Shown: positions 4,290 to 21,033, numbered from the stretch's first letter. The stretch: DNA of 46,124 nucleotides from an uncultured Gammaproteobacteria bacterium (GCA_964002385.1 CAXFFS010000001.1:1-46124); one strand, 5' to 3'. Numbers and translations are program-made. Notes: generated by a model from the letters alone, not told the origin.

Positions 4290-4290
4290 A

Positions 4291-5346
4291 TTGACCTACA
4301 TAGTAAAACCAAAGAACCACCACCCTGATCTTGAACGAAATGAACTTGGGCTCACAAGAAGAGACTATGAAGGCTCAATTTCTAGTTTGTGTGCCGGTTG
4401 TGGACATGATTCTATAAGTGCAGCAATTTTAGAAGCTTGTTTCCAACTTAATATTTCAGCCCATCGTGTAGCAAAATTATCAGGAATTGGTTGCTCTTCA
4501 AAGGCGCCAGCTTATTTTTTAAACCAGGCGCATGGATTTAATTCGGTTCATGGAAGGATGCCATCTATAGCAACTGGAGCAAATCTGGCGAATCATGAAT
4601 TAATGTATTTGGGAATTTCAGGTGATGGAGATACTGCCTCGATTGGCATAGGCCAATTTGTTCATGCCGCTAGAAGACAATTAAATGTCGTGTATATAGT
4701 TGAGAACAATGGAACTTATGGACTAACTAAAGGGCAGTTCTCAGCAACAAATGATCTGGAATCAAAAAGTAAATATGGAGAAGATAATCTTTTTCCTGCA
4801 ATAGATTTAGCTGCAATGGCTATCCAGCTTGGAGCTAGCTTTGTGGCAAGAAGTTTTTCGGGAGATAAAGACCAATTAGTCCCCCTCTTAAAAGCATCTA
4901 TGAAGCATAAAGGCTTCTCTTTCCTCGACATCATTTCTCCTTGTGTTACCTTCAATAATCATAAGACTTCCACAAAAAGCTATGATTACATTAGAGAACA
5001 CAATGAGTCGGTCTCTAAGCCAGACTTTGTACCTCTAGGTAAAGAAATAACTACAAGTTATGATGAAGGCGAGAGCGTTCAAGTCCCTCTGCATGATGGT
5101 TCATTGATCTCTTTAGAAAAACTATCTAAAGATTTTGATCCTTCTAATAAGTCTTCTTCTTTGGCCAAAATTAATAAAGCGGAAGAGGAAGGTAAGGTAT
5201 TAACAGGTTTGCTCTATATAAATACTGAGGCTAAGGATTTAAAAGAGATACTTAATGTAGTGGATAAGCCCTTAAATCAATTAAATGAAAAGGACCTATG
5301 TCCTGGAACTAAGAAATTAAAAGAAATTAATAAAGATCTTTGTTGA
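4291..5346 (+). CDS. korB: 2-oxoglutarate/2-oxoacid:acceptor oxidoreductase subunit beta (TPP-binding)
   Basis: 351 aa with a TTG start 1 nt after the korA stop. It has the CAGCGHDS Fe-S/TPP region and the GISGDGDTASIG...ENNGTYGLTKGQ TPP motif. Confidence 0.88.
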   Translation: MTYIVKPKNHHPDLERNELGLTRRDYEGSISSLCAGCGHDSISAAILEACFQLNISAHRVAKLSGIGCSSKAPAYFLNQAHGFNSVHGRMPSIATGANLANHELMYLGISGDGDTASIGIGQFVHAARRQLNVVYIVENNGTYGLTKGQFSATNDLESKSKYGEDNLFPAIDLAAMAIQLGASFVARSFSGDKDQLVPLLKASMKHKGFSFLDIISPCVTFNNHKTSTKSYDYIREHNESVSKPDFVPLGKEITTSYDEGESVQVPLHDGSLISLEKLSKDFDPSNKSSSLAKINKAEEEGKVLTGLLYINTEAKDLKEILNVVDKPLNQLNEKDLCPGTKKLKEINKDLC

Positions 5347-5347
5347 T

Positions 5348-6064
5348 TTATTCTATACCTAGCTTCTTTGCTATTACCTGGTATGACTCAACAACATCCC
5401 CAAGATCCTGTCTAAATCTGTCCTTATCAAGCTTTTCTCTTGTATGCGAATCCCATACCCTGCAACCATCTGGGGTAAACTCATCACCTAGAAGTAATTC
5501 ACCCTTAAAAGAACCAAACTCCAACTTATAATCTACAAGTATCATTCCAGCTTCAGCAAATAGGTTCTTGAGTATTTCATTCACTTGAAATGTCTTCTTC
5601 TTCATCTGATCTACTTGATTTTCAGTAGCCCAATTGAAAGATTCAATATGATATTCATTAATCATAGGATCATGAAGCTCATCATCCTTATAAAAGAATT
5701 CAAAAGTAGGTGGATTCAGATCCAAACCTTCCTCTATTCCAAGCCTTTTACAAATACTTCCTGCTGCTATATTTCTAATTACACATTCAACGGGAACCAT
5801 TTCAAGCTTCTTGACCAAACTTTCAGTTTCAGAAAGTAGCCTTTCAAAGTGAGTAGGCACACCTTCTTTTTCAAGAATATCCATAATAAACGCATTAAAT
5901 TTATTATTAGTAGCACCTTTTCCCTCTAAACTTTCTTTTTTAACGCCATCAAAAGCTGAGGTGTCATCTCTGTAATGCATAAAGTAATAATCTGGGTTAG
6001 AAGTCTCGTACAAAGACTTTGCTTTCCCTGAGCTTATTAACTTACCCTTTTCTATATCTTCCAT
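5348..6064 (-). CDS. purC: Phosphoribosylaminoimidazole-succinocarboxamide (SAICAR) synthase
   Basis: 238 aa. [29 protein letters not shown]...NNKFNAFIM aligns with E. coli PurC. The purC-bamC-dapA synteny matches E. coli. Confidence 0.95.
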
Positions 6065-6072
6065 AAAAGCAA

Positions 6073-7068
6073 CTATGATAACGATTGGTTAATCTCGGAG
6101 AGTAAATCTCTTTCAAAGTTCTCTGCTGCCTCGCTGGCACTATCTACGGTAATGGTGCATTTATTTTGACCAATTTTTTTTACGTAAATTTTAAAGTCTG
6201 GATTCTTTGAATTTTTACTTCTTGTAAAAAGCTTTTTAACAAAGCCTTCTTCCTCTTCTCGAGTGAAACTAACAAAAAATACTCCATTTGTACGGTCTAA
6301 ATCATTAACTGTTATAAGTGCTTCTTTAAGTGCCCTATCAACTGCAGCCCAAGCCCTAGGAAATTCCAGATTCATTTCAATAAAGTTTGAGCCATCCTCA
6401 GATTGTTTTAGAACTGCTTTTTGTCCAAGATTGAGGTTTAAAGCTACTAAAGAAGTACCTCCTGTTGATGGAGCATCCGTTAAAAAATCTAAGGCGTCTC
6501 TTAAAACATCATCTTCAAGATTGTCTTCTACTGGAACACGAATCCAATTATTGTCTGTATTTTTTATTAAATGAGAGAGAAAGATTTCTGAACTGGCTTG
6601 CCTTATACCATGTTCAATTTTCATCTGTAATTTTGTTTGTTTTGAATTTACTTGTAGCTCTTGGCTTTCAAAAATACCTGAATTTGGGTCTTCGTAAGAC
6701 AAACCGAAATTACTAGATGACCAAAAGTCTTTCATCAATGGCCAAACGCTACTAGGAAGAGCTTCCACATAAAGCCATCTAATCTCACCTAATTTATGCA
6801 TCCTTATTTCATTAGTTGACCCGGAAGAGAATACTTGGGCAGGTAGTGGAATCTCATAAGAATCCCCTACAAGATCTTCTTCAGTACTAGGGATTGGATA
6901 AAAATCAATTATGGGTCTTGTAGATTGTTCAGAAGAGATTTCTATAGGCTCAGACTGTTTCTCTTTTAAGTAATCATATCTGTGATCTTCCAATATCCAT
7001 CCACAGGAGCCTAGAATTAAAGCTAACGTAAATAGAACTAAATATTTTTTTCCGCTAAGAATTGTCAT
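6073..7068 (-). CDS. bamC: Outer-membrane protein assembly factor BamC (NlpB) lipoprotein
   Basis: 331 aa with signal peptide and lipobox LILGSC. It sits in the conserved position between dapA and purC. Confidence 0.75.
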
Positions 7069-7956
7069 TTAATTTGTAAGACCTAATTTATTTAGTATTA
7101 GTTCAATCTCGGGAACATACTCTTCATCTAGAATGGTAAGTGGAAGCCTAATGCCTGATGGAATCCTTCCCAGTCTGTTCAGCACCCATTTTACAGGAAT
7201 CGGGCTTGTTTCAATAAATAATGCGTCATGAAGGTTAGTTATTTTAGAATCAGCTTGATGCGCTTCCTTGGCAAGCCCACTTAATGCCAACTCACATATC
7301 TTAGAAATTTTTTCTGGTACTACATTTGCAGTTACCGAAATAATTCCATGACCTCCCCCATTGAGGAACTTGCAAGCAGTTACGTCATCACCTGAATACA
7401 AAAAAAAGGACTCATCATGTATTTTATTTTTTAATTGGGATAATCTCTCAGGATCGGGTGAAGCCTCTTTAATTCCCACAATATTCTCTATTTTAGAGAG
7501 GTCAGCTACCGTTTCTGGTAAAAGATCACACGCTGTTCTCGTTGGAACATTGTACAAAATTTGGGGGATATCTACTTCCGAAGCTATTTCAGAATAATGT
7601 TCTATAAGACCTTTTTGAGTCGGTCTATTGTAATAAGGGGTAACAAGAAGGGCAGCGGATGCACCTGCTTCTTTAGCAGATGAAGTTAGGTATGTTGCTT
7701 CCTTGGTAGAATTGGCTCCAGTACCAGCAATAATAGGAATCCTGCCTGCAGAATGATTTACAGATTGTTCTATTACTTGAATATGTTCTGCAACATCCAG
7801 AGTTGCAGACTCTCCTGTAGTGCCTACCGACACTATTGCTGAAGTTCCAGAGACTATATGCCAATCAATTAGATCAAATAAAGACTGCCAACTAATATTG
7901 CCATCTTGCTCCATCGGAGTAACTAAGGCTACTATTGATCCTTTTACATTAAACAT
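7069..7956 (-). CDS. dapA: 4-hydroxy-tetrahydrodipicolinate synthase
   Basis: 295 aa. GSIVALVTPM...GTTGESATL...YNVP motifs are typical of DapA. The stop abuts the bamC start. Confidence 0.95.
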   Translation of the reverse strand: MFNVKGSIVALVTPMEQDGNISWQSLFDLIDWHIVSGTSAIVSVGTTGESATLDVAEHIQVIEQSVNHSAGRIPIIAGTGANSTKEATYLTSSAKEAGASAALLVTPYYNRPTQKGLIEHYSEIASEVDIPQILYNVPTRTACDLLPETVADLSKIENIVGIKEASPDPERLSQLKNKIHDESFFLYSGDDVTACKFLNGGGHGIISVTANVVPEKISKICELALSGLAKEAHQADSKITNLHDALFIETSPIPVKWVLNRLGRIPSGIRLPLTILDEEYVPEIELILNKLGLTN

Positions 7957-8036
7957 AACAAACTAATCGGGTAACTTATTCTGGTTATTTAAATAGATTT
8001 CTAATAAATTAATTATATCAACAATAAGGAGAATAT

Positions 8037-8507
8037 ATGGCAACACCCAAAGTAGGAAATAAAGCCCCTGTGTTTAAAGGAATTTGTACTGGAGAAGAAA
8101 ATGTAGATCTCTCTAAACTTAAGGGAAAGAAAGTAATTCTCTATTTTTACCCCAAGGACAGTACTCCAGGATGCACAACAGAAGGACAAAATTTTAGAGA
8201 CCTCTATAAGCAGTTTAAAAAAGAAGGTACCTTAATTTTTGGGCTTTCAAGAGAATCTTTAAAATCCCATGAGAATTTTAAAACCAAGCAATCTTTTCCT
8301 TTTGAGTTAATTTCTGACCCAGATGAAAAAATATGTAACCAATATAAGGTGATTAAGGAAAAAAGCATGTATGGAAGAAAGTACATGGGAATAGAAAGAA
8401 GTACCTTCCTGATAGATGAGAAAGGGAAGCTAGTACAAGAATGGAGAAAAGTAAAAGTTACTGGTCATGCCCAAGAGGTACTAGACACAATAAAAACTAT
8501 GAAATAA
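8037..8507 (+). CDS. bcp: Thioredoxin-dependent thiol peroxidase (peroxiredoxin Bcp)
   Basis: 156 aa. YFYPKDSTPGCTTE is the peroxidatic Cys motif. A strong SD (AAGGAG) lies upstream. Confidence 0.92.
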   Translation: MATPKVGNKAPVFKGICTGEENVDLSKLKGKKVILYFYPKDSTPGCTTEGQNFRDLYKQFKKEGTLIFGLSRESLKSHENFKTKQSFPFELISDPDEKICNQYKVIKEKSMYGRKYMGIERSTFLIDEKGKLVQEWRKVKVTGHAQEVLDTIKTMK

Positions 8508-8510
8508 AGT

Positions 8511-9563
8511 TTATTCTAGAGTTTGTTGAGGCCAAGAGTTGATTATGGCTTTAACAAATGTTGCTAATGGTATAGCAAAGAAAAGTCCCCAAAACCCCCA
8601 AATACCTCCAAAAAATAAAACTGAAATTACAATTACCACTGGATGTAGTTTATTTCTAGCAGAAAAGAGTAAAGGTACCAAGACATTGCCATCAAGGGCT
8701 TGGATAATTAGGTATATCCCTAAAAGCCACCAGAAGTCTGCAGATATACCCCATTCATACAATCCGACAAGTAAAACTGGAACAGTAACCAAAATAGCAC
8801 CAAAAAAAGGAATCATGACTGATAGACCTACTAACAAAGCCAGTAAGAAGGTATACGGGAGTCCTAGAAAGGTAAAAGCTATAAAGCTAACTGAAGTTAC
8901 TATAAAGATTTCTATGAGTTTGCCTGTTACATAGTTGTAGAGCTGATCATTCATTTCATTAAAAATGGAATCCATCAAACCTTTTTCTTCTGGAGCAAAG
9001 AAACTAATAAGCGGTAGAAGAGTATCTTTATCTTTAACAAAGAAAAAAACCATTAATGGGATCAAGATGGCATAAATTAAAGCACTAAATGCGAAACTTA
9101 TAGTCCCAGCAATTTGACCAAGAGCTTGCGCAAGAAGATTATTTAACTGAGAGCTTAAGTTAGCAAAAAGGCTAGGAATCTCATCTTCAGAGAAGAATTC
9201 TGGGTATGAGCTTGCTAAGTTGGAAAGAGCCTGTTGCAGGGCTTCAACTATATTAGGAAGGCTTTGGATTAAAGAGTTAATTTGGGATCCTATTGAAGGA
9301 AGTATCAAAAAAAGACTGGTATATAAAGCAAAGAAAACTAGTAATGAAGTCGTCAGAGATAACCATCTTGGAAATTTGAAATTCTCTAAGGTTAGAACTA
9401 ATCCATTTAATAAAAAGGCTACAACTAAACTAATAAGAATAGGTAAAAGAATTCCACCAAAAAAGAAAAGAAGTAAAAATGCCCCTAATAAAAAAAGAGC
9501 AAAATAGACAGTTTCTTCGCTGAAGAAAAACCTATCAAGTAACCCTTTTAAAAGATCTAGCAT
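8511..9563 (-). CDS. AI-2E family transporter (PerM/YhhT-like permease)
   Basis: 350 aa polytopic membrane protein with the C-terminal pattern ALDGNVLVPLLFS....LHPVVIVISVL.FG..WG..G...AIPL typical of the AI-2E/UPF0118 family. Confidence 0.8.
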   Translation of the reverse strand: MLDLLKGLLDRFFFSEETVYFALFLLGAFLLLFFFGGILLPILISLVVAFLLNGLVLTLENFKFPRWLSLTTSLLVFFALYTSLFLILPSIGSQINSLIQSLPNIVEALQQALSNLASSYPEFFSEDEIPSLFANLSSQLNNLLAQALGQIAGTISFAFSALIYAILIPLMVFFFVKDKDTLLPLISFFAPEEKGLMDSIFNEMNDQLYNYVTGKLIEIFIVTSVSFIAFTFLGLPYTFLLALLVGLSVMIPFFGAILVTVPVLLVGLYEWGISADFWWLLGIYLIIQALDGNVLVPLLFSARNKLHPVVIVISVLFFGGIWGFWGLFFAIPLATFVKAIINSWPQQTLE

Positions 9564-9582
9564 TAATTATTTCTTTTCTATT

Positions 9583-9792
9583 CTATAAACAAACTTCCCA
9601 TCCTTTTTTTTCAGCATGAATAAGCTTATTGCTACTTATTTTCGCATAAGAAGCAAAATCTTCCCATGAAGTAGGGTCTGTAGCTGTTATTTCAAGGATT
9701 TCTCCACTGTTAAGTTCAGACAGTGATAACTTGGTCTTCAATAAGGGCAATGGACAGTTTAAATCTTTGGCATTCAAGTATTTCTTTAGCAT
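9583..9792 (-). CDS. TusA/SirA-like sulfurtransferase
   Basis: 69 aa. It has the CPLPLLK active-site motif (CPxP) and the typical beta-alpha-beta length. Confidence 0.75.
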   Translation of the reverse strand: MLKKYLNAKDLNCPLPLLKTKLSLSELNSGEILEITATDPTSWEDFASYAKISSNKLIHAEKKGWEVCL

Positions 9793-9863
9793 ATTTAAGG
9801 ATAGTTTTTGAACTGATTGCTATTATGTAAGTCAATAATTTTATTAACGACCATTATAACGAT

Positions 9864-11321
9864 ATGATTGAGAATAAATCTTTAAGTTCAAATCTAATGA
9901 AAAGTTTAGTCTTGATGATTCTATTTACATCATCTTTTAATGTCTCTTCTGAAGAATCTTTACCTGAACTTGGAGACACTTCTTCTTCTGCAATTTCATT
10001 AGATTCTGAATATAGATTAGGCAGACTCTATATGGCTCAATTAAGGAGATCTGTACCTGATCTAAAAGACCCGCTAGTGCAGGATTATTCTGAACATCTT
10101 ATTTACAGGTTAAGTGAGTACAGCCAACTGGAAGATAGGCGGTTAGAAATAGTCATGATAAGAGACGAAAGCATAAATGCTTTCGCTGCCCCTGGAGGAA
10201 TCATAGGAATATATTCAGGTCTTATTTACCACTCAGAAACAGAGGGACAATTAGTATCAGTTTTATCTCACGAATTGGCTCACTTAAGTCAAAGACATTT
10301 CGCAAGAAACCTTCAAAGACAACAAGACAGAAGTTTATCAAATGCCTTAATTTTATTAGCTAGTATTGCGATTGCAGCTTCAACTAGCCCAGAAGCTATA
10401 ATGGCTGGACAGCAAGTTCTAGCTCAACAAGCCTTATCTTATAGCCGAAGTAACGAACAGGAAGCTGACAGAATAGGGTTTTTAACGATGATTTCTGCAG
10501 GTTTTGATCCCGAAAGCATGCCTCAAATGTTTGAAATGCTACAAGCTCTTAATAGGTTAAGTGGAGCTAATGAGCTTGAATTTTTAAGATCTCACCCCCT
10601 GACAAAGAAGAGAATAAGTGACTCTAGAACCCGAGCTAGAGAAATAAAGGGTTCAAATTATAAAAACAGCTTAGATTTTTCATTAATTAAGCAAAGAATT
10701 TCTATTGGTTTATTTAAAACTTCACGTCAAGCAGTTATGCAATTGAGACAGGAAAAAAGAAGGGCTAAAAACGAACGGCAAAATATTATTGCTGGGTATG
10801 GTCTGGGCTTAGCCCTTTCTAGAGATAACAAATACAGCGCAGCTCTAGATGAAATAAGACAGGCCCTTAAATTAGATGAAGAAAATCTCATCTTGCAAAC
10901 AGCTTTATTAGAAATTCATTTAAATGCAGGTAATGGGTTGGAGGCAGTTGGAGTTGGAAAAAATTTAATAGAAATGAATCCGTCTAATTTCCCTATTTCT
11001 ATGTTGTATGCAAGAGCCCTAATGCATCAAAAACAATATGGCACAGCTGAAGAAGTTCTAAAAAAACTATTACTTAAAAGAAAAGATGATCCTCAGGTGT
11101 GGTATTGGTTAGCTGAAGTTCAAGGGTTGGCAAGAAAAATAATCGCACTACATCAATCAAGGGCAGAATATTTTTACCTCACAGGAAATTATGACCGGGC
11201 TATTGAACATCTCAGGTACGCCTTGGAACTTGCAGGAAATAATTTTCAATTAAATGAAGTTTTGCAAACTAAGATAGAGAATGTCTTTGCTACCCAAGAA
11301 GAGCTAAAAGACTTTACTTAA
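9864..11321 (+). CDS. bepA: Periplasmic M48 metalloprotease/chaperone with TPR domain (BepA/YfgC)
   Basis: 485 aa with a signal peptide, the HELAHLSQRH zinc motif, a downstream EQEADRIG, and C-terminal TPR-like repeats. Synteny with perM and bcp matches E. coli. Confidence 0.88.
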   Translation: MIENKSLSSNLMKSLVLMILFTSSFNVSSEESLPELGDTSSSAISLDSEYRLGRLYMAQLRRSVPDLKDPLVQDYSEHLIYRLSEYSQLEDRRLEIVMIRDESINAFAAPGGIIGIYSGLIYHSETEGQLVSVLSHELAHLSQRHFARNLQRQQDRSLSNALILLASIAIAASTSPEAIMAGQQVLAQQALSYSRSNEQEADRIGFLTMISAGFDPESMPQMFEMLQALNRLSGANELEFLRSHPLTKKRISDSRTRAREIKGSNYKNSLDFSLIKQRISIGLFKTSRQAVMQLRQEKRRAKNERQNIIAGYGLGLALSRDNKYSAALDEIRQALKLDEENLILQTALLEIHLNAGNGLEAVGVGKNLIEMNPSNFPISMLYARALMHQKQYGTAEEVLKKLLLKRKDDPQVWYWLAEVQGLARKIIALHQSRAEYFYLTGNYDRAIEHLRYALELAGNNFQLNEVLQTKIENVFATQEELKDFT

Positions 11322-12361: not shown

Positions 12362-12949
12362 ATGGCTAAGAACAATAAAGATACTAACTTTGAATTGGAA
12401 ATTTCTCAAAAAGAACTACAAGAATTCATTGAAAATTTAGATCCTAAAAGGAATATTCAAGATCTAGCTGCATCTGCAGCTGAAATAATAGCCTCTGCCG
12501 GATTTTCTACGCACTGGGATGATATTTTACCTATGTTGGATGATGAACATATTTCAGAAGATTTAAGATTGGCTGCACATATTATTTTTAGAGCTAAACT
12601 AGTATTGGAAGAGATGGAAAAAGATTCTTCGTTACGTAATATCGTCTATAACACAATGCTAATGATGGATGCCTTAGAGGTGGCCAACATAAAGGGATAT
12701 ATTCCTTCTGCATCTGATGTGAATTTCAATAAAATGGAAGCCAAAACTTCGAGTATGAATATGGCTATCAAAAAAGAAAAAATCATTGATACCATAAGAC
12801 AGTTGGCGAAAGAAAATCCGAAAAAAGGCATCACTTGGCTTAGAAAAAGAGCATCTACCTTGCTTAGTTCTGAAACACAGAAAGGATATAGTTATAGACA
12901 AATCTTAAGAGATACTAAGGGAATGAGAATAAAAAATGATAAAACTTAA
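12362..12949 (+). CDS. Hypothetical protein (orphan, helical, acidic N-terminus and basic C-terminus)
   Basis: 195-aa ORF with coding-like composition and no recognisable motif. Its stop overlaps the crcB stop (shared TTAA). Confidence 0.5.
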   Translation: MAKNNKDTNFELEISQKELQEFIENLDPKRNIQDLAASAAEIIASAGFSTHWDDILPMLDDEHISEDLRLAAHIIFRAKLVLEEMEKDSSLRNIVYNTMLMMDALEVANIKGYIPSASDVNFNKMEAKTSSMNMAIKKEKIIDTIRQLAKENPKKGITWLRKRASTLLSSETQKGYSYRQILRDTKGMRIKNDKT

Positions 12950-13308
12950 TTGTTGGTTATCTGCATACCAATCCAAGTAGCCAACAAACATCCTATTACA
13001 GTAAAGACAATATAACTCATAACAGCCAACCAATTACCTTGCTCAATTAGTTGAAACGTTTCTTTTGAGAAAGCAGAAAAGGTAGTAAAGGCTCCTAGGA
13101 AACCCATTAACAAAAGAGGTTCATAGATTTCTTCATATTTTGGACCCATTAAATTAATTAAAATTCCCAATAGAAAACATCCTAAGATATTTACTGAAAA
13201 AATTCCCAGAGGGAAAAAAAGAAGTTGTGCTCTTTCAATTACTTCAGAAATTAAAACTCTGCATAAGGCTCCTGTAGCTCCTCCAATAAGAATTAAAAAA
13301 TACTTCAT
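12946..13308 (-). CDS. crcB: Fluoride ion channel CrcB/FluC
   Basis: 120 aa, 4 TM. IGGATGALCRVLI and GFLGAFTTFSAFS are typical CrcB motifs. Confidence 0.9.
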   Translation of the reverse strand: MKYFLILIGGATGALCRVLISEVIERAQLLFFPLGIFSVNILGCFLLGILINLMGPKYEEIYEPLLLMGFLGAFTTFSAFSKETFQLIEQGNWLAVMSYIVFTVIGCLLATWIGMQITNN

Positions 13309-13315
13309 TTTTTGA

Positions 13316-13392
13316 TGGTGGGCCGTCGGCGACTCGAACGCCGGACCAATTCCTTAAAAGGGAACTGCTCTACCAAACTGAGCTAACGGCCC
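13316..13392 (-). tRNA. tRNA-Lys (anticodon UUU), CCA encoded
   Basis: The reverse complement is GGGCCGTTAGCTCAGTTTGGTAGAGCAGTTCCCTTTTAAGGAATTGGTCCGGCGTTCGAGTCGCCGACGGCCCACCA. I folded it manually into a cloverleaf: 7-bp acceptor stem GGGCCGT/ACGGCCC, D stem GCTC/GAGC, anticodon stem GTTCC/GGAAT with loop CTTTTAA, T arm CGGCG-TTCGAGT-CGCCG. Confidence 0.95.
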
Positions 13393-13394
13393 AA
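13354..13394. repeat. Direct repeat copy 1 (41 bp): tRNA-Lys from 2 nt upstream of the 5' end through the anticodon loop
   Basis: ttaaaagggaactgctctaccaaactgagctaacggcccaa is identical to 20288..20328, checked base by base. Confidence 0.95.
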
Positions 13395-13513
13395 GGTCGG
13401 CATTATACATATTAACAATTAATAATTTGATATAGTCAAATTATGAAAATACTTCTCTTCAAAGTACTTCTTCAAATGATGAGATCTTATTAATTAAAAA
13501 GATATAATTTGAT

Positions 13514-14203
13514 ATGAATTCTTCCTTAAATTTAATTTGGACCAGAACTCAAAATGTTATTGGTTTTGTTTTAATGATAGTTTTCTTGGCTTATCCATTC
13601 CCTAGACTTGTTTTTATTTCAATAGCTGCCTGGATTTTAATTTCTACCACAGTCACGGCAATTTTACTAAAAACTACCTTTACCATAGCCAATACAGTTA
13701 CTATTTCAAGAGCATATGGATTGGTAATTTTTTCTTTTTTGCTTGCTTACAATCAATCTGTCACTAACTTATCTATTTTTATTTTAGGAATCTGTTTAAT
13801 GGCAGATTTTTTTGATGGTTACCTTGCCAGAATCTTTACGACAAGTTCTGCAGGAAAAGTGCTTGATGGAGAGACTGATCAACAGTTTGTGTTAGTAGCA
13901 GCTTCTACAGCTTTTATTTTTTTAGATATTTCTTTTTGGGTGTTACTTTTCCCCAGCATGAAGTATATTTTTGAAACTTGTTATGATCTATTTAGATTAA
14001 AAGTTAACGAAAAAGAAGGAAAGAAAAGAAGGAAAATTATTGCTGCAATTGTAATGATTATTTTATTTATAAACCTAGCTTTTATAGAAGAAGAATCTAG
14101 TATCTTTTTTTATTTAATAGGTCTCCTAGCACTTTCCTACTCTTTTTTAACAGATCTAATTAGGGCATTGAAGTCACAATTAAAGAATAATCATGTCTCT
14201 TAA
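13514..14203 (+). CDS. CDP-alcohol phosphatidyltransferase family membrane protein
   Basis: 229 aa, polytopic. It carries the signature ADFFDGYLARIFTTSSAGKVLDGETDQ (DxxDGxxAR...GxxxDxxxD). Confidence 0.85.
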   Translation: MNSSLNLIWTRTQNVIGFVLMIVFLAYPFPRLVFISIAAWILISTTVTAILLKTTFTIANTVTISRAYGLVIFSFLLAYNQSVTNLSIFILGICLMADFFDGYLARIFTTSSAGKVLDGETDQQFVLVAASTAFIFLDISFWVLLFPSMKYIFETCYDLFRLKVNEKEGKKRRKIIAAIVMIILFINLAFIEEESSIFFYLIGLLALSYSFLTDLIRALKSQLKNNHVS

Positions 14204-14897
14204 CAAACAACAAAAAATTGTTAATTGGTTTGATATAACATATAAACGTAAAGGTTTTTCTTATCTACGAACTTCTGAAGCATATGAAGTATTCACTAAG
14301 ATTTTGAACTTAAAATCAGGTGACTCAGTTCTTGATGTTGCTTGCGGACCAGGACTTTTTTTAAGTCTCGCAAATGAAATTGATTGTAGATGTACAGGTA
14401 TTGATGCTTCTAAAGAAGCTGTAAAAATGGCTCAAAACTATACTCCTGAATCTGAGATCTATTTGGGAAATTCAGAAAAATTACCTTTTGAAGACAATAG
14501 CTTTGATGTGGTAGTTTGTATTGGTGCCTTAGAGCGTTTTGTAAATCTCCAAGAAGCTCTTGCTGAACAACTTCGTGTCGCTAAACAAAATTCTCGTTTT
14601 TGCTTCTTAGTTAGAAATTCAAGTAGTATTTTATGGACTATCAACATGAAAATATTGAGGCGTCAAAATACAGCTGGACATCAAGATGCAAAGTCACTGG
14701 ATCAGTGGAAACATGTTTTCGAATCTAATGGCTTTAATATTGAAAAAATTTTTCCTGACCAATGGCCTTTACATAAAATAATCTCATTCTTTCCTTTATT
14801 TATAAAAAAAAGAATTATGCTAAGTATTCATAAAGGGGTTTTTCCTCTTAGTCTTTCTGGAGAATTCATATTTCTTCTCTCCAAAAAAAACCCTTAA
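14193..14897 (+). CDS. Class I SAM-dependent methyltransferase
   Basis: 234 aa. Motif I is VLDVACGPGLF and the post-I/II region is LPFEDNSFDVVVCIGALERF. It overlaps the upstream gene by 11 nt. Confidence 0.85.
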   Translation: MSLNKQQKIVNWFDITYKRKGFSYLRTSEAYEVFTKILNLKSGDSVLDVACGPGLFLSLANEIDCRCTGIDASKEAVKMAQNYTPESEIYLGNSEKLPFEDNSFDVVVCIGALERFVNLQEALAEQLRVAKQNSRFCFLVRNSSSILWTINMKILRRQNTAGHQDAKSLDQWKHVFESNGFNIEKIFPDQWPLHKIISFFPLFIKKRIMLSIHKGVFPLSLSGEFIFLLSKKNP

Positions 14898-14903
14898 AAA
14901 TAT

Positions 14904-16505
14904 GTGGTTTTAATGATTGAAAGAAGAATTTACTACTTTATATTGGCTATTTTGTCCGCTCTGTTTTTAAATCTTTTCCTTTCAATATCCTTCACCCCAG
15001 AAAAATGGTTCAGATTAAGTTCAGATTTACTTTTATTTTTACCTTTTCTGTTAATAACAAGTTCTTTATCTAAAAAACCAAATTTCTGGATACATTTGTT
15101 TTGTTTATTAATTTGTTTATTTGGTCTTTACAGGTGCCTCAGTTTAGTTTCTGAATTGATCTTTCATAGACCATTTTCTTTCTTTGATATATTTCTAATT
15201 TCTGAATTAGATTATTTCATAGATCAGAGTCTATCTGCTTATGAAAAAAGCTTATTCATACTAGTAACTCTATCAACAGCTATCCTAAGTTATCTTGTGA
15301 TATTCAGTATCAGTAAATGGATAGTTAAATCATTCAGGTTAAGTAAAAAGATTACGCTGGCAGGAATCTTTTTAGGATTTTTCATGATAGTTTTTATTCA
15401 ATTTTTAGTCATTAAAGAAGGTGATAATTTTTCTGTAACAAGGGGTTTATATTTAAAAGATTTTGTTGTTTTTTTTGATGAAGCCCTAGAAGGGATAAAA
15501 ATCAAAAATAACAAAGATCTAGTAAAAAAAAACCTTGAGTTATCTAACAGCTTCTTAAATAAAGATGCTTATGATCTATCAAAAATAAGTAACACTAATG
15601 TTGTTATTATATTTGTTGAATCGTATGGAGCTGTGTTAGTTCAAAATTCAGATTTATTTGAATCTTATCAAAGCTTTTATACTGAAATGAATACCAAATT
15701 AGAAAAAAAGTTTTTCTCCATGGTTACTGGTTATTCAGCAGCTCCTGAAAGTTCTTGGCTTTCTAGACTAAGTTTTTCATCCGGCACAAAGATGGATCAC
15801 AGATACATAGCTAACCTAGCAATGGTGTCCAATTTGACGACATTAAATAAGAAATTTTCTTTAGAAGGTCATAAAACTTTTAGTTTTATGCCAGGTGTCA
15901 CTGAACATGTTGAATACATAGAATCATTCTTCGATTTCGAAAAAAGAATTCGTTTTTGGCATTTAGATTGGCCTGCTGATATAAATCCAGTTGGCTGGGC
16001 AGTCATTCCAGATCAATTTGCTTTGGAGTGGTTGGGAAGAAAATCAAGTTTCGAGAACTTAACCCCTTTTTACACAGAGATAGTCCTCTCAAGCAGCCAT
16101 ACACCATTTGGCGAAGTGCCTCCTTACATACCAAAAGGAAATTTTAACTTAGAAGACTATCCTTTTATTAAAAAAAGAAATTCTTTGGGTATTTTGTCTC
16201 ACATGGAAAGCAGCCCTAAAAAATACATGATTTCAATTGAATATAGTCTCAATTCAGTTTGTGACTTTATTGAAAAATATCTTAGCCCGGAAGATTTGAT
16301 TATTGTGATAGGAGATCATCAACCTCCTGTACTGAAAACTAATTCTAATCTAGTTCCAGTACATATTATTAGTGGTAAAAAGAGCTTATTAGACCCATTT
16401 GAAAAAATAGGTTTCCATAACAATTTATCTCAATTAAAACTTAAAAAACATATTAATCACGAAGACATTGCGGAATTCCTATTGGAGAACTATTCTTCTT
16501 ATTAA
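14904..16505 (+). CDS. Membrane-anchored alkaline-phosphatase-superfamily protein (sulfatase / LTA-synthase / phospho-alcohol transferase-like)
   Basis: 533 aa with about 5 N-terminal TM helices and then an extracytoplasmic domain. That domain has VVIIFVESYGAVL (metal/nucleophile region) and IIVIGDHQPP (the GDH motif of the superfamily). The start is GTG at 14904 or ATG at 14913. Confidence 0.6.
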   Translation: MVLMIERRIYYFILAILSALFLNLFLSISFTPEKWFRLSSDLLLFLPFLLITSSLSKKPNFWIHLFCLLICLFGLYRCLSLVSELIFHRPFSFFDIFLISELDYFIDQSLSAYEKSLFILVTLSTAILSYLVIFSISKWIVKSFRLSKKITLAGIFLGFFMIVFIQFLVIKEGDNFSVTRGLYLKDFVVFFDEALEGIKIKNNKDLVKKNLELSNSFLNKDAYDLSKISNTNVVIIFVESYGAVLVQNSDLFESYQSFYTEMNTKLEKKFFSMVTGYSAAPESSWLSRLSFSSGTKMDHRYIANLAMVSNLTTLNKKFSLEGHKTFSFMPGVTEHVEYIESFFDFEKRIRFWHLDWPADINPVGWAVIPDQFALEWLGRKSSFENLTPFYTEIVLSSSHTPFGEVPPYIPKGNFNLEDYPFIKKRNSLGILSHMESSPKKYMISIEYSLNSVCDFIEKYLSPEDLIIVIGDHQPPVLKTNSNLVPVHIISGKKSLLDPFEKIGFHNNLSQLKLKKHINHEDIAEFLLENYSSY

Positions 16506-16516
16506 GTAAGGAAAAA

Positions 16517-17641
16517 ATGAATAAAATTAATAACGTAAAAAATGCTATTAAAGTTTCTTCGTTCATTCAGTCTAGCGATCTAGATCTTGACAAAACTACA
16601 CGAGAATTGTGGCCAGCTATACTAGCCTTAAAAAATTTCTTGGTTTCTGCTAATTCTCTTCCTACAACAGGATATTTTCTCAGAAAAGAAGATAAAAATT
16701 CTTGGGAATATTTTGTTCCTAAAGAAAAAAAATCTTTCAAATTTTTTGAGAAAAATTTCAAATTTGTTATTGAAGTTAGATCAACTCCAAATTTTAAAAG
16801 AGAAGAAATTAATAATTTAAATAATCAAAAAAGTAAAACCTTTACTTCTTTTCATTTAACCGAACTGATTAATCAAAATCTGAATTCCAAAATAACCAAG
16901 ATGGTTAATTTGGATTATGACTTAATAAGAGCAATAACTTCCCTTAGCTTGTATTTACCCATTATTTTAGGGGAATGGGAAGCTAAGCAATCTGCTTCAA
17001 TTTTCGTAACAGGTCACTTAACTCAGTCTGAAGATGGGAAAATTGCAAAGAAAGATGGTTCTCCAATTTGGTTAGGGGGAGAATTAGATAAGATGCATAC
17101 ACATAGATTAAGAAGTCTTCATGGATCTTTGTTGATAGGATCAAAAACCCTTAAGCATGATAACCCCCAATTAAATGTGAGGCACTGTGAAGGAAAAAAT
17201 CCTGATCTAATAATTTTTGAAACTAATGATGAGGATTTCTTTGACAAAAAACTTTTTCAGTTAAAAAAAAGAAAAATTTTTCTTTTATGTAGAAATCAAA
17301 GAGAAATGAGTAAAAATTTCAAACTAAAGTCCATAATAAAGAATATAAAATTTGACTGTAATAAAACATTTATATCTCCCAAAGAAATCTTAACCAAGCT
17401 TGTTAAAAACAATATTCATTCTATATTTATAGAGGGTGGAGGAATAACTATCTCGCATTTTCTTGTTGCAAATTTGTTTGATCGTTTTCACTTACAAACC
17501 TCGGATAAAACTCTTGGTTCTGGAATTAATTCTTTTAATCTTCCAACTTCTTCAGATATTGAAAACATATCTGCTTTTATTAGGACTGACTACAAAATTG
17601 ATGAACAAACTTTGTCTGATTATTCTAAAGTGATTCCTTGA
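16517..17641 (+). CDS. Protein with a C-terminal RibD-C / dihydrofolate-reductase-like reductase domain and an unknown ~160-aa N-terminal domain
   Basis: 374 aa. The C-terminal half reads IFVTGHLTQSEDGKIA...LRSLHGSLLIGSKTLKHDNPQLNVR...IFIEGGGITISHFLVANLFDRFHL, as in RibD C-terminal domain (PF01872-type) proteins. Confidence 0.6.
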   Translation: MNKINNVKNAIKVSSFIQSSDLDLDKTTRELWPAILALKNFLVSANSLPTTGYFLRKEDKNSWEYFVPKEKKSFKFFEKNFKFVIEVRSTPNFKREEINNLNNQKSKTFTSFHLTELINQNLNSKITKMVNLDYDLIRAITSLSLYLPIILGEWEAKQSASIFVTGHLTQSEDGKIAKKDGSPIWLGGELDKMHTHRLRSLHGSLLIGSKTLKHDNPQLNVRHCEGKNPDLIIFETNDEDFFDKKLFQLKKRKIFLLCRNQREMSKNFKLKSIIKNIKFDCNKTFISPKEILTKLVKNNIHSIFIEGGGITISHFLVANLFDRFHLQTSDKTLGSGINSFNLPTSSDIENISAFIRTDYKIDEQTLSDYSKVIP

Positions 17642-17666
17642 TCTGGATAAGTACACTAATAGTAAA

Positions 17667-18725
17667 ATGTTTGAAATTGAAGTTCTACAACCACCAAGAA
17701 ATAATCTTCAGTCTGGTGGCTATTTGTTTAATTATAAAATAACTCAAAACCTCAAAAAGAAATGCTCTTGTCGACTAGTTGAAATTGAAAATAAAGATCT
17801 TGTTAAATACTTATCAAAACGTGCTAAGAATAAATCTGTAATTATCTTAGATAGTATTTATCTTAAATATATAGATTATTCAGAAATTGAACCTTTATTG
17901 AAGGGTAGAAACCGTAGAATTATGCTTTTATTGCACTTATTACCTAGCGCTGACTTAAATAAAGAAAATTCAACTCTCACTTTAAAACGAAAAATTCAAT
18001 CTAGAGAACTAGGTTGGATTAAGAAAAGCAACTTAGTAATTATAGTAACAGGTAAAAATTACAAAAAAGAGCTGGTTAAAAAAGGGGTTTGCCCTTCGAG
18101 GATAAAGGTTATCTACCCGGGCCAAGAAACCAAAATACTTAAGAATAAAGAAGTATCAAATAGAGTAAAGCATCCTGTAAGAGGTGTAACAGTTGGTTCT
18201 ATATGTCCAAGAAAGAATCAAATTCTGCTTCTAGAAATACTAAGAAAAATTAAACCTGAGTTATATGAATGGACCTTTATAGGTAATATGGATATATCTC
18301 CTAAATACACCAAAAAATTAATTCATATTGTTAAAAAGGGTAAGATGAAAAATAGTATATTTTTTAAAGATCAGATTCATCACACAAAAGTCATTGAGAA
18401 CCTTCTTCAATCAGATTTATACGTGTCAACTTCAGTTCAGGAGTCCTACGGCATATCTGTAGCAGAAGCTTGTAGTGTAGGTCTACCAGTATTGTCTTTA
18501 AATACTGGAGACTTTTCTTATTGGGTACAAAATAATAAAAATGGTTATTTAATAGACCAAGAAAATACGAAAGAACTTGAAAATAAAATACTTGCTGTTC
18601 TTGCTGATTTAAATTTATTAAATCAATTGAAGATTTCTTCCATAAAGCTTAGCAAAGAAATATCTATTCCCACTTGGGAACAAAGTAGCTCAAAATTTGA
18701 GAAAATCTGTTGTTCTCTCTACTAA
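17667..18725 (+). CDS. Glycosyltransferase, GT4 (GT-B fold) family
   Basis: 352 aa. The C-terminal ESYGISVAEACSVGLPVLSLNTGD is the E-x7-E-like donor-binding region of group-1 glycosyltransferases. Confidence 0.8.
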   Translation: MFEIEVLQPPRNNLQSGGYLFNYKITQNLKKKCSCRLVEIENKDLVKYLSKRAKNKSVIILDSIYLKYIDYSEIEPLLKGRNRRIMLLLHLLPSADLNKENSTLTLKRKIQSRELGWIKKSNLVIIVTGKNYKKELVKKGVCPSRIKVIYPGQETKILKNKEVSNRVKHPVRGVTVGSICPRKNQILLLEILRKIKPELYEWTFIGNMDISPKYTKKLIHIVKKGKMKNSIFFKDQIHHTKVIENLLQSDLYVSTSVQESYGISVAEACSVGLPVLSLNTGDFSYWVQNNKNGYLIDQENTKELENKILAVLADLNLLNQLKISSIKLSKEISIPTWEQSSSKFEKICCSLY

Positions 18726-19702
18726 TGATGAAAACTTATAGTTACTGGGTTATTGAAGCCAACAAAGGAGAGATTCGAGAATCCAACCTCAAAGAAGAAA
18801 AAGATTACTCACTAGTAAAGACCTTGTTATCAGGAATAAGTACTGGAACGGAAAAACTCGTTGGTAAAAGAAATGTTCCAAGCTCAGCTTACAATTTTAT
18901 GTCTGTTCCATACATGGAAGGTAACTTTGATCTTCCTATTAAGTATGGTTACAGCTTGGTTGGAGTACCTCTGAGTGGAAAATACAAAGGTTTAAGGACA
19001 TTTATCATGCACCCACATCAAACTTTATTTTATGCATCTGACAGTGACTTATTAGTCTTACCAGATGAAATTTCTAATGAAGCAGCCATTTTGATCCCTT
19101 ATTTAGAAACAGCTTTAAATGCTATATGGGATGCAAAACTTAGACAAAAGGAAAGTGTTGCTATTGTGGGTGGAGGGAATTTGGGCATCTTTGTAGGCTT
19201 TGTGCTTAAGTCTATGGATATAAAATTTTCACTTATTGAAAAAAGCTATAAACGCTACAGAAAAATATTGAATCTAAAATGGATAACTTCTACCTACAAG
19301 GAAAGTTCTGATCTAGGACAAACTTTTGACGTGATATTCAATACTTCAGGTTCGTCTGAAGGTCTTCAAAAATCTTTAGATATAGGAGGATTTGAGAGTA
19401 GAGTTATAGATTTAAGTTGGTATGGGTCAACCAATGTAAACTTGAATTTAGGTGAATCTTTTCACTGGAACAGAAAAAAAATTATTTCTTCCCAAGTTTC
19501 TCACGTAGCAGCTCCTAAGAGAATATCAGTTAGCAAAGACGAAAGACTGAAACAGGTCCTTGACCTATTGAGAGATCCTGTTTTAAATAAGTTTGGAAGG
19601 TGTGAAATAGAATTTAAAAACTTACCAGGATTTATGCATCAATTATATGCAAATAAAGACGTTGGATGGTCTCCTATAATTCATTATGAAAGAAATAGCT
19701 AA
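18725..19702 (+). CDS. Medium-chain dehydrogenase/reductase (MDR) family protein lacking the catalytic zinc ligands
   Basis: The Rossmann motif is VAIVGGGNLGIFVG. The positions of the ADH motifs GxCxxD and GHE read GISTGTE and GYS (Cys to Ser, His to Tyr, Glu to Ser). I chose the ATG at 18725 (TAATG overlap with the GT stop). The ORF track uses TTG at 18710. Confidence 0.65.
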   Translation: MMKTYSYWVIEANKGEIRESNLKEEKDYSLVKTLLSGISTGTEKLVGKRNVPSSAYNFMSVPYMEGNFDLPIKYGYSLVGVPLSGKYKGLRTFIMHPHQTLFYASDSDLLVLPDEISNEAAILIPYLETALNAIWDAKLRQKESVAIVGGGNLGIFVGFVLKSMDIKFSLIEKSYKRYRKILNLKWITSTYKESSDLGQTFDVIFNTSGSSEGLQKSLDIGGFESRVIDLSWYGSTNVNLNLGESFHWNRKKIISSQVSHVAAPKRISVSKDERLKQVLDLLRDPVLNKFGRCEIEFKNLPGFMHQLYANKDVGWSPIIHYERNS

Positions 19703-20079
19703 TGTATAGTCTTTCAGTAAATGATTTTTTCATGGTCGCCCACAGTCTAAAAGGTAAAGAATTTGGTCAAGCTCAAAATCTTCATGGGGCCACCTTTGAA
19801 ATTACAACTGAATATAAAGTTAAAAAGTTAAATAATTTAGGAATAGTGATAGATGTTGTAGTTGCAAGTGAAATTCTAAAAAAGGTAATAAAGCAGTTTA
19901 ATTATAAGAATTTAGACGATTTAAAAGAATTTCAAAATTTAAACACATCTATGGAAGTACTCTGTGAGTATATTCACAAACAAATTTCAGGACTTTTACT
20001 GGGTAACTTTGAAGGCTCTCTAAAGGTCACAATTAAGGAAAATCCATTAGCCCAATGTTCCTTTGAAGATAAAATCTAA
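19702..20079 (+). CDS. 6-pyruvoyl-tetrahydropterin synthase / QueD (COG0720)-like protein with a degenerate active site
   Basis: 125 aa. FFMVAHSL....GQAQNLHGATFEI aligns with the QueD sequence FEAAHRL....CGRLHGHSF. However, the Cys and third His are both Ala here, and the DHH of LDHHYLN is NYK (FNYKNLD). The ATG overlaps the upstream stop. Confidence 0.55.
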   Translation: MYSLSVNDFFMVAHSLKGKEFGQAQNLHGATFEITTEYKVKKLNNLGIVIDVVVASEILKKVIKQFNYKNLDDLKEFQNLNTSMEVLCEYIHKQISGLLLGNFEGSLKVTIKENPLAQCSFEDKI

Positions 20080-20287
20080 ACTTTGTTTAGGTTTGTAACC
20101 TTGGTATCCAAATAACAGCAAAAAAGTTTATTAGAGCTTTTAAAAATAAACTAATTTCAAACATATTTTAGGGATAGCTAAGGGATAGCAATTAATATGA
20201 GTCTATGTCAAGGTATACAGATTTTATAGGCTTATATAACAACATATAATGTTGATATATAAAGGAATTTGGGATTAGATAACTTCT

Positions 20288-20328
20288 TTAAAAGGGAACT
20301 GCTCTACCAAACTGAGCTAACGGCCCAA
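20288..20328 (-). pseudogene. Direct repeat copy 2: orphan 5' half of tRNA-Lys (positions 1 through the anticodon loop, plus 2 upstream nt)
   Basis: It is identical over 41 bp to 13354..13394. Identity stops exactly at the 3' edge of the anticodon loop, and 4 of the next 6 nt still match. No 3' half follows. Confidence 0.9.
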
Positions 20329-20358
20329 AGAAAGGCGTATATTAAATGTTTAGGCAAG

Positions 20359-21033
20359 TTAATTCGACTCCTGAATTAAAGTTTCCTTAGATTTTTTTGC
20401 TAATTCTGCTGCTCCTGTATCAGGATATTCAGAAATAAGTCTGGAAAAATAGGAATTAGCTGCCTCATCATTGAGTAAAAGTTTCTCAATCACTCCTAGC
20501 TTATATAGACAATCAGCAACCCTGTCATGATCTTTAAACTTTTCTGCAACTACCAGGTAATGTTCTCTTGCATCTTCCAATTGTTCTTGGACTAAATAAA
20601 GTTCGCCAGACCAAAAATAAGCATCAGCAGAATAAGTTCCTTCTGGAAAAGAAATTATTAAGTCGCGGAAGACTTCTAAGGCTTCAGCGTATCTTGAGAC
20701 TTCAAACAACTCCAAAGCTTCTTTGTATAAATCAATCTCTTCAGTTGAGTTTAAATCATTGAGATTTAAGGATCCCTCATTTAATTCTTCTAGTTCTCCT
20801 GAAAGGATACTGTGTAACCTTTTGTCTAAATCTAGGTATCTTTGCTGTTGAAGTTCTTGATAGCGTTCGATCAAAAAGGTATTTTCTTCAATCAAGTTTC
20901 TCAGAGTGGCTATCTCTTGCTCTAGGGCTCCAATTTTTTGGTAAATTAAATCTAATGATCCTTCTTCCTCAGAAGAAAGTCTTAGCTGAAAAGCTAAAAT
21001 AAATACAAAAAATAAAAAAAGTGATTTTTTCAA
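20359..21033 (-). CDS. cpoB: Tol-Pal system protein CpoB (YbgF), TPR protein
   Basis: 224 aa with a signal peptide, an N-terminal coiled coil and C-terminal TPR repeats. It is the last gene of the tol-pal cluster. Confidence 0.85.
   Translation of the reverse strand: MKKSLFLFFVFILAFQLRLSSEEEGSLDLIYQKIGALEQEIATLRNLIEENTFLIERYQELQQQRYLDLDKRLHSILSGELEELNEGSLNLNDLNSTEEIDLYKEALELFEVSRYAEALEVFRDLIISFPEGTYSADAYFWSGELYLVQEQLEDAREHYLVVAEKFKDHDRVADCLYKLGVIEKLLLNDEAANSYFSRLISEYPDTGAAELAKKSKETLIQESN

Follow-up and report, generated by a model that had tools for sequence, protein, structure and literature searches.

We examined a 46,124-nucleotide (nt) stretch of DNA from an uncultured Gammaproteobacteria bacterium (GCA_964002385.1 CAXFFS010000001.1:1-46124), hereafter the window, in which a 6.9-kb island of seven biosynthetic genes lies between two copies of a 41-bp repeat drawn from the 5' half of a tRNA-Lys gene. 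A genome-collection scan with the 533-amino-acid (aa) protein encoded by one of the island's cargo genes placed the host in the SAR86 clade (L033, L034; L numbers denote the contigs and loci compared with the window). The sole tRNA gene called by ARAGORN in the window is tRNA-Lys(ttt), at 13316-13392 on the minus strand. A window scan found exactly two copies of the 41-mer (TTAAAAGGGAACTGCTCTACCAAACTGAGCTAACGGCCCAA), at 13354-13394 and 20288-20328, with no third copy at three or fewer mismatches and no match in 100 shuffles; the identical pair reported in a preliminary description of this DNA was thus reproduced, and the repeat is not a dispersed one. On the tRNA strand it consists of 'tt' followed by tRNA-Lys nucleotides 1-39, and owing to one extra base in the D-loop, nucleotide 39 corresponds to A38 in standard numbering, where the anticodon loop ends. 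The block of identity stops there, at the end of a loop flanked by the inverted repeat of the anticodon stem, and past the orphan copy the sequence reads agaagt versus ggaatt in the tRNA, with four of the six positions still matching, as had been described. The order on the tRNA strand was also as first given: cpoB, the orphan half, seven plus-strand genes, the intact tRNA and crcB, with pal, tolB, tolA and tolR upstream of cpoB and all flanking genes on the tRNA strand. The element is therefore bounded by an intact tRNA-Lys and, upstream of it on its own strand, by a directly oriented 5' fragment, which is the signature of a tRNA island. The features of the two boundaries are as follows.

12946..13308, minus strand: crcB, the flank downstream of tRNA-Lys (Pfam CRCB, E = 4.6e-29)
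13316..13392, minus strand: intact, chimeric tRNA-Lys(UUU) (ARAGORN), with nucleotides 1-39 and the upstream region island-borne and the 3' half chromosomal
13354..13394, minus strand: direct-repeat copy 1 (core of the attachment site attR), 'tt' plus nucleotides 1-39, an exact 41-mer with 0 expected by chance
13395..13513, minus strand: island-borne region upstream of the intact tRNA and divergent spacer to the first cargo gene (read from the sequence)
20167..20287, minus strand: remnant arm of the attachment site attL, aligned with L085, L061 and L090 and homologous to the integrase-proximal arm
20288..20328, minus strand: direct-repeat copy 2, comprising the orphan 5' half (20288-20326) and 'tt', joined to agaagttatct
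20329..20358, minus strand: native tRNA-Lys upstream region beside the orphan half, with TAATAT at 20339-20344 (minus strand)
20359..21033, minus strand: cpoB (ybgF), the last tol-pal gene and chromosomal flank (Pfam TPR and TolA_bind_tri)

The composition of the island sets it apart from its surroundings, with a GC content of 0.303 compared with 0.343 for the lowest other 6.9-kb window in the region. None of the seven island proteins matched a recombinase family, and a profile built from the related integrases described below matched none of the stop-to-stop open reading frames (ORFs) of the 46-kb window, in keeping with the earlier report of an island lacking a recombinase. The region upstream of the intact tRNA holds a perfect TATAAT at 13402-13407 (minus strand), followed by gccgacc, tt and G1 of the tRNA, and is conserved in L034 (actatgtataatgccgggttt) and in the empty site of L073 (tatatgtataatgccgacctt), whose tRNA promoter matches that of the window island over 20 nt; from this conservation and its position, the TATAAT region probably acts as a promoter. 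At the opposite end, the attL arm contains a tandem GCTATCC motif (CTATCCCTTAGCTATCCC, 20171-20188) that occurs once in the window where 0.06 occurrences are expected.

Empty and occupied alleles across SAR86

Exact look-up of the CpoB and CrcB proteins of the window identified 20 marine-metagenome contigs (L001-L020) in which cpoB is followed by a 116-nt tRNA-Lys spacer and crcB, the latter adjoining the tRNA directly. The empty site of L001 equals, base-for-base, the cpoB side of the window up to the orphan half joined to its tRNA/crcB side, and positions 20329..20358 of the window match exactly what precedes the intact tRNA in L001-L020 and L053-L057, all of them empty. An exact look-up of the 6-pyruvoyl-tetrahydropterin synthase (PTPS) protein encoded by the last cargo gene identified 10 contigs that carry all seven genes at this site, and empty and occupied alleles co-occurred in samples ERZ23495352 and ERZ8578505.

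A further 32 loci were surveyed by CpoB alignment and grouped by CpoB identity to the window. At 92-100% identity, five loci were empty. The 75-78% group was mixed: three loci were directly empty (L063, L065, L066), six showed the orphan junction (L062, L069, L070 and L071 leading into the island, L061 into an integrase element, L072 inferred), four carried a small extra gene before the tRNA (L058, L059, L060, L064), and L067 was left unassigned, its contig ending in the tRNA. At 71-72% identity, L068 held a diverged cluster without an orphan half and L073 was empty, and at 66% or less all 10 loci showing the site were empty, with tRNA-Lys directly after cpoB. Empty target sites in relatives thus comprise L001-L020, L053-L057, L063, L065, L066 and L073-L083, and the empty cpoB-tRNA-Lys-crcB alleles of the 20 contigs and of distant SAR86 bear out the earlier supposition that the two flanks were once contiguous. 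Judged by this distribution, in which empty alleles dominate the 92-100% lineage and all distant SAR86 lineages, the empty site is the ancestral state and the island an insertion. The extra gene of the 75-78% group lies in ~615 nt between cpoB and the tRNA promoter (1399-2011 in L059) and encodes a 142-aa Cupin_7 (ChrR-like) protein.

Comparison of occupied alleles separated the history of the island from that of its flanks. The island was 99.5% identical to that of the window in L024 and 98.4% identical in L070, where the flanks were 79-81% identical, and 99.5% identical in L021, where the flanks were 94-96% identical. In these three contigs identity switched at the tRNA sequences and not in the flanking core genes, and a replacement flexible island with breakpoints in flanking core genes was not seen in any of them. 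The orphan half keeps the native upstream sequence of its lineage (cttgcctaaacatttaatatacgcctttcttt in the window lineage, gaattaattacgtatgtataatgcccgctcat in the 75-78% group), and the intact tRNA is preceded by the island's own ...atatgtataatgccgacctt, the island-borne upstream sequence tataatgccgacctt being common to the window and L070. The 3' half of the tRNA follows the lineage: the window has ccGgcg..cgcCg, and L070 and the empty sites of its lineage have ccTgcg..cgcAg. Because the 3' half is lineage-specific and the upstream promoter region island-specific in the window, L070 and L024, the tRNA-Lys is a chimera, as the preliminary description had predicted. At the level of sequence comparison, these data demonstrate the insertion, its exact ends, its horizontal spread and the chimeric tRNA.

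Two versions of the island have also recombined with each other. In L026 (1-2255) and L029 (1-1100), corresponding to window 13400-16500, the left third (genes 1-3) was 64-78% identical to the window and the rest 99-100% identical; therefore homologous recombination acts inside the island between diverged versions.

Two unrelated promoter types stand before tRNA-Lys in different SAR86 lineages. The core of the island type (atgtataatgcc) is native in empty sites of the 75-78% and 71-72% groups (L063, L065, L066, L073), and the other type occurs in the window lineage (L001), in L024 and in most distant lineages (compared: L074-L080); this distribution may reflect ancient replacement by elements of reversed polarity. 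At the cpoB end, the orphan half (window 20288-20358) keeps its native upstream region with TAATAT and is followed by no terminator-like site, and its transcript might extend into the island in antisense to the PTPS gene.

A second insertion site and an integrase-bearing sister element

The island was also found away from tRNA-Lys. Two independent assemblies, L107 (JGI; 2222-9910) and L109 (ENA), whose flanks agree with one another at 98% identity and bear no relation to the window, carry a 99.2%-identical island between a gene for an SDR-family dehydrogenase (Pfam adh_short) and the oadA/malate synthase G genes. Its ends are those of the window island, X|agaagttatctaatccc... at one side and ...tataatgccgacctt plus tRNA nucleotides 1-39|gggaagcgg at the other, and no tRNA was called at the insertion site. 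The reconstructed target, gcaCTTC-tgagccca-gGGAAGcgg, resembles the tRNA sequence gcaGTTC-ccttttaa-GGAATtgg in its arms and not in its spacer, giving a putative pseudo-site pattern of GCACTTC-N8-9-GGAAG versus GCAGTTC-N8-GGAAT. The empty form of the L107/L109 site was not recovered; the target as reconstructed probably represents a secondary site of a tyrosine recombinase, and homologous recombination through tRNA identity is unable to explain this copy. The island brings its own promoter and 5' half to the L107/L109 site, and therefore the element itself carries the tRNA 5' half, as had been proposed for its attP.

A tyrosine integrase was found at the same junction in other cells. The junction between the orphan half and agaagttatct, which is the same in all occupied loci, leads into an integrase gene (int) in L061, L085, L086 and L088-L090. 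In L061, of the 75-78% group, the orphan half and the junction TTTTAA|agaagttatct are followed, 137 nt later, by the start of a 438-aa integrase with Phage_integrase (2e-19) and Arm-DNA-bind_3 (1.7e-10) domains, matches in PDB to XerA, IntI4, HP1 Int and a CP4-like arm-binding domain, and readable catalytic motifs CRLGE, HSLRHH and GH...Y. A complete 4.85-kb element with window-like flanks is present in L085 (9825-14787; also L086), its integrase being 80% identical to that of L061. The order of this element is native upstream region and orphan half, int, four small ORFs, a gene for a 414-aa protein (uncharacterized phage family phrog_4756), element-borne upstream region, intact tRNA-Lys and crcB, and its direct repeat is a 42-bp tRNA 5' half. 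The small ORFs of L085 gave no credible Pfam match, with one marginal match to Ribosomal_L29 below cut-off. Searches of IMG/VR viral contigs for two junctions gave no match and the integrase profile found one irrelevant 31% fragment only, and by these searches the element is not a recognised phage.

The window island shares an arm with these elements. Its tail of ~120 nt (20167-20287) aligns with the att arms of L085, L061 and L090. The tandem GCTATCC motif, which is a candidate binding site of the arm type, falls within this alignment, and the homology stops where int starts in the other elements, the int gene being absent from the window. Taken together, the alignments demonstrate an integrase family at the junction used by the island; the footprint of an anticodon-loop-targeting tyrosine recombinase, recognised in the preliminary description, thus has a P4-type integrase at the same place (L061, L085), and an element with an integrase, the same junction and the same 5'-half duplication, which that description had suggested looking for, exists in L061 and L085/L086.

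Relatives of the L061 integrase at tRNA-Val(TAC) allowed the polarity of these elements to be compared. In L091 (integrase 47% identical to that of L061), an orphan tRNA-Val(TAC) 5' half (9818-9855), broken right after the anticodon loop, precedes int. L093 (tRNA at 9808-9883) and L094, with 40% identity and the chromosomal locus of L091, have an intact tRNA-Val and then int, the classical arrangement, and L095 (5560-5640; 41%) has a bare 3' half before int at tRNA-Val(TAC). Int lies just 3' of the crossover in all the tRNA-Val relatives and the tRNA half carried by the element varies, suggesting that polarity flips between classical and reversed within the integrase clade at the same tRNA-Val gene. 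In a reversed-polarity element, int beside the orphan half occupies the classical position relative to the crossover. Of the contrast with classical islands drawn in the preliminary description, the duplication of the 5' half stands, and what it says on the placement of int is to be corrected in this sense. P4/CP4-type tyrosine integrases (Arm-DNA-bind_3, tRNA anticodon loops) are alike in domain architecture, PDB matches and the placement of int immediately 3' of the crossover in the direction of the tRNA, with L093 and L094 as classical members of the clade; the tRNA-Lys elements and L091 differ in that the tRNA-identical block (5' half and promoter) runs away from int, whereas the classical 3' half runs toward it.

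Route of integration and rival explanations

We consider it very probable that the window holds a mobile SAR86 island integrated in the anticodon loop of tRNA-Lys(UUU) by a P4-type tyrosine integrase that the island itself lacks. According to this model, the integrase would insert the element at the tRNA-Lys anticodon loop downstream of tol-pal-cpoB, and the attP of the element would bear the tRNA promoter and 5' half on its far side instead of the usual 3' half. Integration would leave the native promoter and 5' half as an orphan beside cpoB, and the working tRNA would draw its promoter and 5' half from the island and its 3' half from the chromosome. The island would retain only the integrase-proximal att arm and the core, with the sister integrase element occupying the site in other cells, and it probably moves in the manner of a cis-mobilizable element, using integrase provided in trans or following tandem accretion with the integrase element. 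The crossover would fall inside the anticodon loop, as the ends of the identity block suggest. The predicted attP sequences are ...TATAATGCCGACCTT plus the 5' half plus AGAAGTTATCTAATCCC for the island, and ...AAAGGTTT plus the 5' half plus AGAAGTTATCTAACCTG for the integrase element.

Several observations weigh against this interpretation or complicate it. Since the two copies agree at all 41 bp, the window does not reveal where the crossover took place. The exact attP junction (island promoter, 5' half and agaagttatc) had no match in JGI metagenome contigs, and the junction common to attL and attP had none in IMG/VR viral contigs. Every integrase contig has native upstream sequence, with no clear tandem array, and the exact island-to-arm (tandem) junction gave no match in JGI contigs. 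The only hint of a tandem arrangement came from L110 (7047 nt, ENA ERZ976284; 1-24), where the island promoter and 5' half are followed at the contig end by 18 nt (agaagtatttgaccccct) that correspond to neither the tRNA 3' half nor a known tail; this end may be a tandem junction with a third type of element. GCTATCC is present on both arms of the integrase elements and only on the orphan-side arm of the window island; therefore, with a tRNA-proximal arm lacking the motif, excision of the island alone may be impaired. The island-borne TATAAT went uncalled in a two-hexamer promoter scan, as no -35 element lies at 16-18 nt. In L030 (3579-3830) the switch point lies 7 nt upstream of the tRNA and not in the anticodon loop. 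That contig has a left flank at 70% identity, a variant tRNA-Lys and no crcB, joined to an island and a cpoB side that match the window at 100%; either it was chimerically assembled across the shared island or it is a recombinant that switches in the promoter, and it was set aside as evidence on the crossover point since the 70% and 100% flanks suggest chimeric assembly.

A further complication concerns the origin of the island's tRNA-proximal end, which is homologous to the chromosomal spacer between cluster and tRNA-Lys in L034. In L034 (8385-15913) and L068 (10001-17529), from another SAR86 species, a 72-73%-identical cluster separates cpoB from tRNA-Lys, and the orphan half, the att arm and crcB are all absent. 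The spacer homology means that the history of the island included events besides simple integration. Simple loss of int from an L085-like element was ruled out as its source, the tRNA-proximal end matching the L034 spacer and not the L085 arm. The island looks composite, its att arm being that of the integrase element and its cluster, promoter and 5' portion of the tRNA being of the chromosomal type.

RecA-dependent recombination alone, acting through the 41-bp (or 77-bp) tRNA identity on a circular or linear copy of the island and with no integrase involved in its spread, appears unlikely. The lack of an integrase in island and window and of any recovered attP circle would agree with such a route, as would breakpoints that coincide with the only perfectly identical stretch between ~80%-identical lineages, the homologous recombination within the island seen in the mosaics L026 and L029, and the L030 switch point in a shared promoter motif. 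It is opposed by the occurrence of the same two ends at the L107/L109 site, which lacks tRNA homology, by an island tail that is a conserved integrase att arm and by the use of the identical junction by integrase elements; furthermore, 41 bp of identity is near the lower limit for RecA-dependent recombination, and the island has nevertheless entered at least five lineages. Much less probable still is a vertical origin, with an old resident cluster, an orphan half produced by duplication and truncation of the tRNA, and empty alleles produced by deletion between the repeats. Recombination between the repeats would indeed restore an exact empty allele, and the 72-73% cluster at the same place in L034/L068, with flanks at 75-76%, is what descent would give. 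The identity profile nevertheless largely refutes this origin, with islands of 98-99.5% identity in backgrounds of 79-81%; all more distant lineages are empty, the same island occupies a second locus (L107/L109), the orphan junction and tail match the attL of the integrase element, and the orphan half, like that of tRNA-Val in L091, is cut off precisely where the anticodon loop ends. An assembly artefact, in which the repeat and the placement of the island stem from chimeric metagenome assembly, has a practically negligible probability: some contigs do break at the island ends (L026-L028, L101-L105) and L030 looks chimeric, but both junctions were recovered in many independent ENA, JGI and Tara assemblies and in several lineages (L021-L025, L070, L108).

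Beyond integration by an integrase that the island lacks, we tentatively put forward a more far-reaching arrangement, which we hold to be possible and rather doubtful: a SAR86 helper and hitchhiker pair, in which a 4.9-kb integrase element mobilizes a 6.9-kb cargo island with one arm, such elements take control of how tRNA-Lys is expressed by substituting their own signals, and polarity flips at tRNA-Val. As tRNA-Lys is probably a single-copy essential tRNA in SAR86, elements of this kind could, if the pair exists, permanently replace the expression signals of an essential gene.

Relation to known islands, and the cargo

The window island fits the signature of a tRNA island except that no integrase lies inside it. 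Islands that duplicate the 5' part of a tRNA gene have been catalogued: Islander lists 159 islands with a 5' tRNA-gene fragment versus 3760 with a 3' fragment (PMC4383910, Table 1; Hudson, Lau and Williams 2015), together with 2083 islands of class 'A', whose attachment sites are centred on the anticodon (PMC4383910). Furthermore, Klebsiella islands at the 5' end of the arg2 tRNA gene have been described (bioRxiv 10.1101/2020.11.02.365908). The reversed polarity noted in the preliminary description is therefore real as to the duplicated 5' half, and its singularity was overstated, such islands being rare yet documented (PMC4383910; bioRxiv 10.1101/2020.11.02.365908). The window island resembles the 5'-fragment islands of Islander in being bounded by an intact tRNA and a displaced direct 5' fragment, in the tyrosine integrase family concerned and in a site centred on the anticodon loop; unlike it, Islander requires an integrase gene inside the island. 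The Klebsiella arg2 sites differ in covering the acceptor and D arms and not the whole 5' half to the anticodon loop, and the present host, an uncultured streamlined marine clade, is unlike the hosts of both.

Cis-mobilizable elements (CIMEs) are defined as elements whose integration genes are lost while their att sites remain, and which owe their movement to accretion with a related element (PMC5704250). Like the CIMEs of the ICESt1/ICESt3 family of Streptococcus thermophilus (PMC5704250), the window island lacks integration genes and has kept the repeats and the attL arm, an autonomous integrase relative targets the same site, and near-identical copies are found in divergent hosts. It differs in that the partner element has no visible conjugation genes, only int, four small ORFs and the 414-aa protein, in that the island keeps the candidate arm-site motif on one of its two att arms, and in that the classic examples occupy the 3' ends of genes. 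The island would thus fit the definition of a CIME except for one incomplete arm, with its mobilization presumed. Integrase-less islands flanked by att sites and islands with 5' fragments were already known, and the host is new.

These results leave current understanding of genomic islands in place, extend island biology to a new host and define att sites and an integrase for possible tests or tools. SAR86 ranks among the most abundant uncultured bacteria in surface ocean water, and the exchange of genes between its streamlined genomes is poorly understood. The locus provides a sequence-defined route for such exchange, consisting of a tRNA-Lys-specific integrase family and a cargo island that has crossed ~80%-identical lineages almost unchanged. 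A mobile element here supplies the promoter and 5' half of a host tRNA, so that tRNA-Lys expression in carriers would depend on foreign DNA. Comparable islands reportedly occur in Prochlorococcus, where those described by Coleman et al. in 2006 are said to be flanked by partial tRNA repeats (3' ends) and to be mostly without integrases. They are alike in being variable, adjacent to tRNA genes and accompanied by tRNA-derived repeats in an abundant streamlined marine bacterium, and unlike in that the repeats there are tRNA 3' ends; no cognate integrase element at the same junction is known to have been reported for them.

The seven genes carried between the repeats are the following.

13514..14203, plus strand: cargo gene 1, CDP-alcohol phosphatidyltransferase (Pfam PF01066, E = 6e-13)
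14193..14897, plus strand: cargo gene 2, S-adenosylmethionine (SAM)-dependent methyltransferase (Pfam Methyltransf_11, E = 1.9e-20)
14904..16505, plus strand: cargo gene 3, 533-aa polytopic membrane protein with an LtaS/sulfatase-like domain (distant homologues)
16517..17641, plus strand: cargo gene 4, RibD C-terminal-type reductase (Pfam RibD_C, E = 1.3e-25)
17667..18725, plus strand: cargo gene 5, family 4 glycosyltransferase (GT4; Pfam Glycos_transf_1, E = 1.8e-23)
18725..19702, plus strand: cargo gene 6, medium-chain dehydrogenase-like protein (NCBIfam BchC-like, E = 1.8e-11, below the curated cut-off)
19702..20079, plus strand: cargo gene 7, 6-pyruvoyl-tetrahydropterin synthase/QueD-like protein (Pfam PTPS, E = 1.5e-21)

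In naming these genes, NCBIfam gave only sub-cut-off matches, among them weak ClsA/PgsA matches under the curated cut-off for the first gene, and PDB only generic domain matches. The third gene had no direct Pfam match; PF00884 is found in its distant homologues (23-29% identity), one of which bears the name phosphoglycerol transferase MdoB-like enzyme. The fourth matched RibD reductase domains in PDB, its N-terminal 160 aa being without a family assignment. The sixth is 325 aa long as called in metagenome contigs, the longest ORF beginning at 18710, and had a weak match to butanediol dehydrogenase in PDB. A seven-gene cluster with 50% identity at the protein level lies in L031 (31-6893), after tRNA-Met and before a hydrolase gene, pnp and rpsO; it was considered as a classical tRNA-Met island and rejected, since no tRNA-Met fragment repeat was found within the contig. 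The seven cargo genes most likely modify a membrane lipid or a surface glycoconjugate, and a lipid or surface-glycan pathway, which the cargo probably represents, is the kind of trait that affects recognition by phages and grazers.

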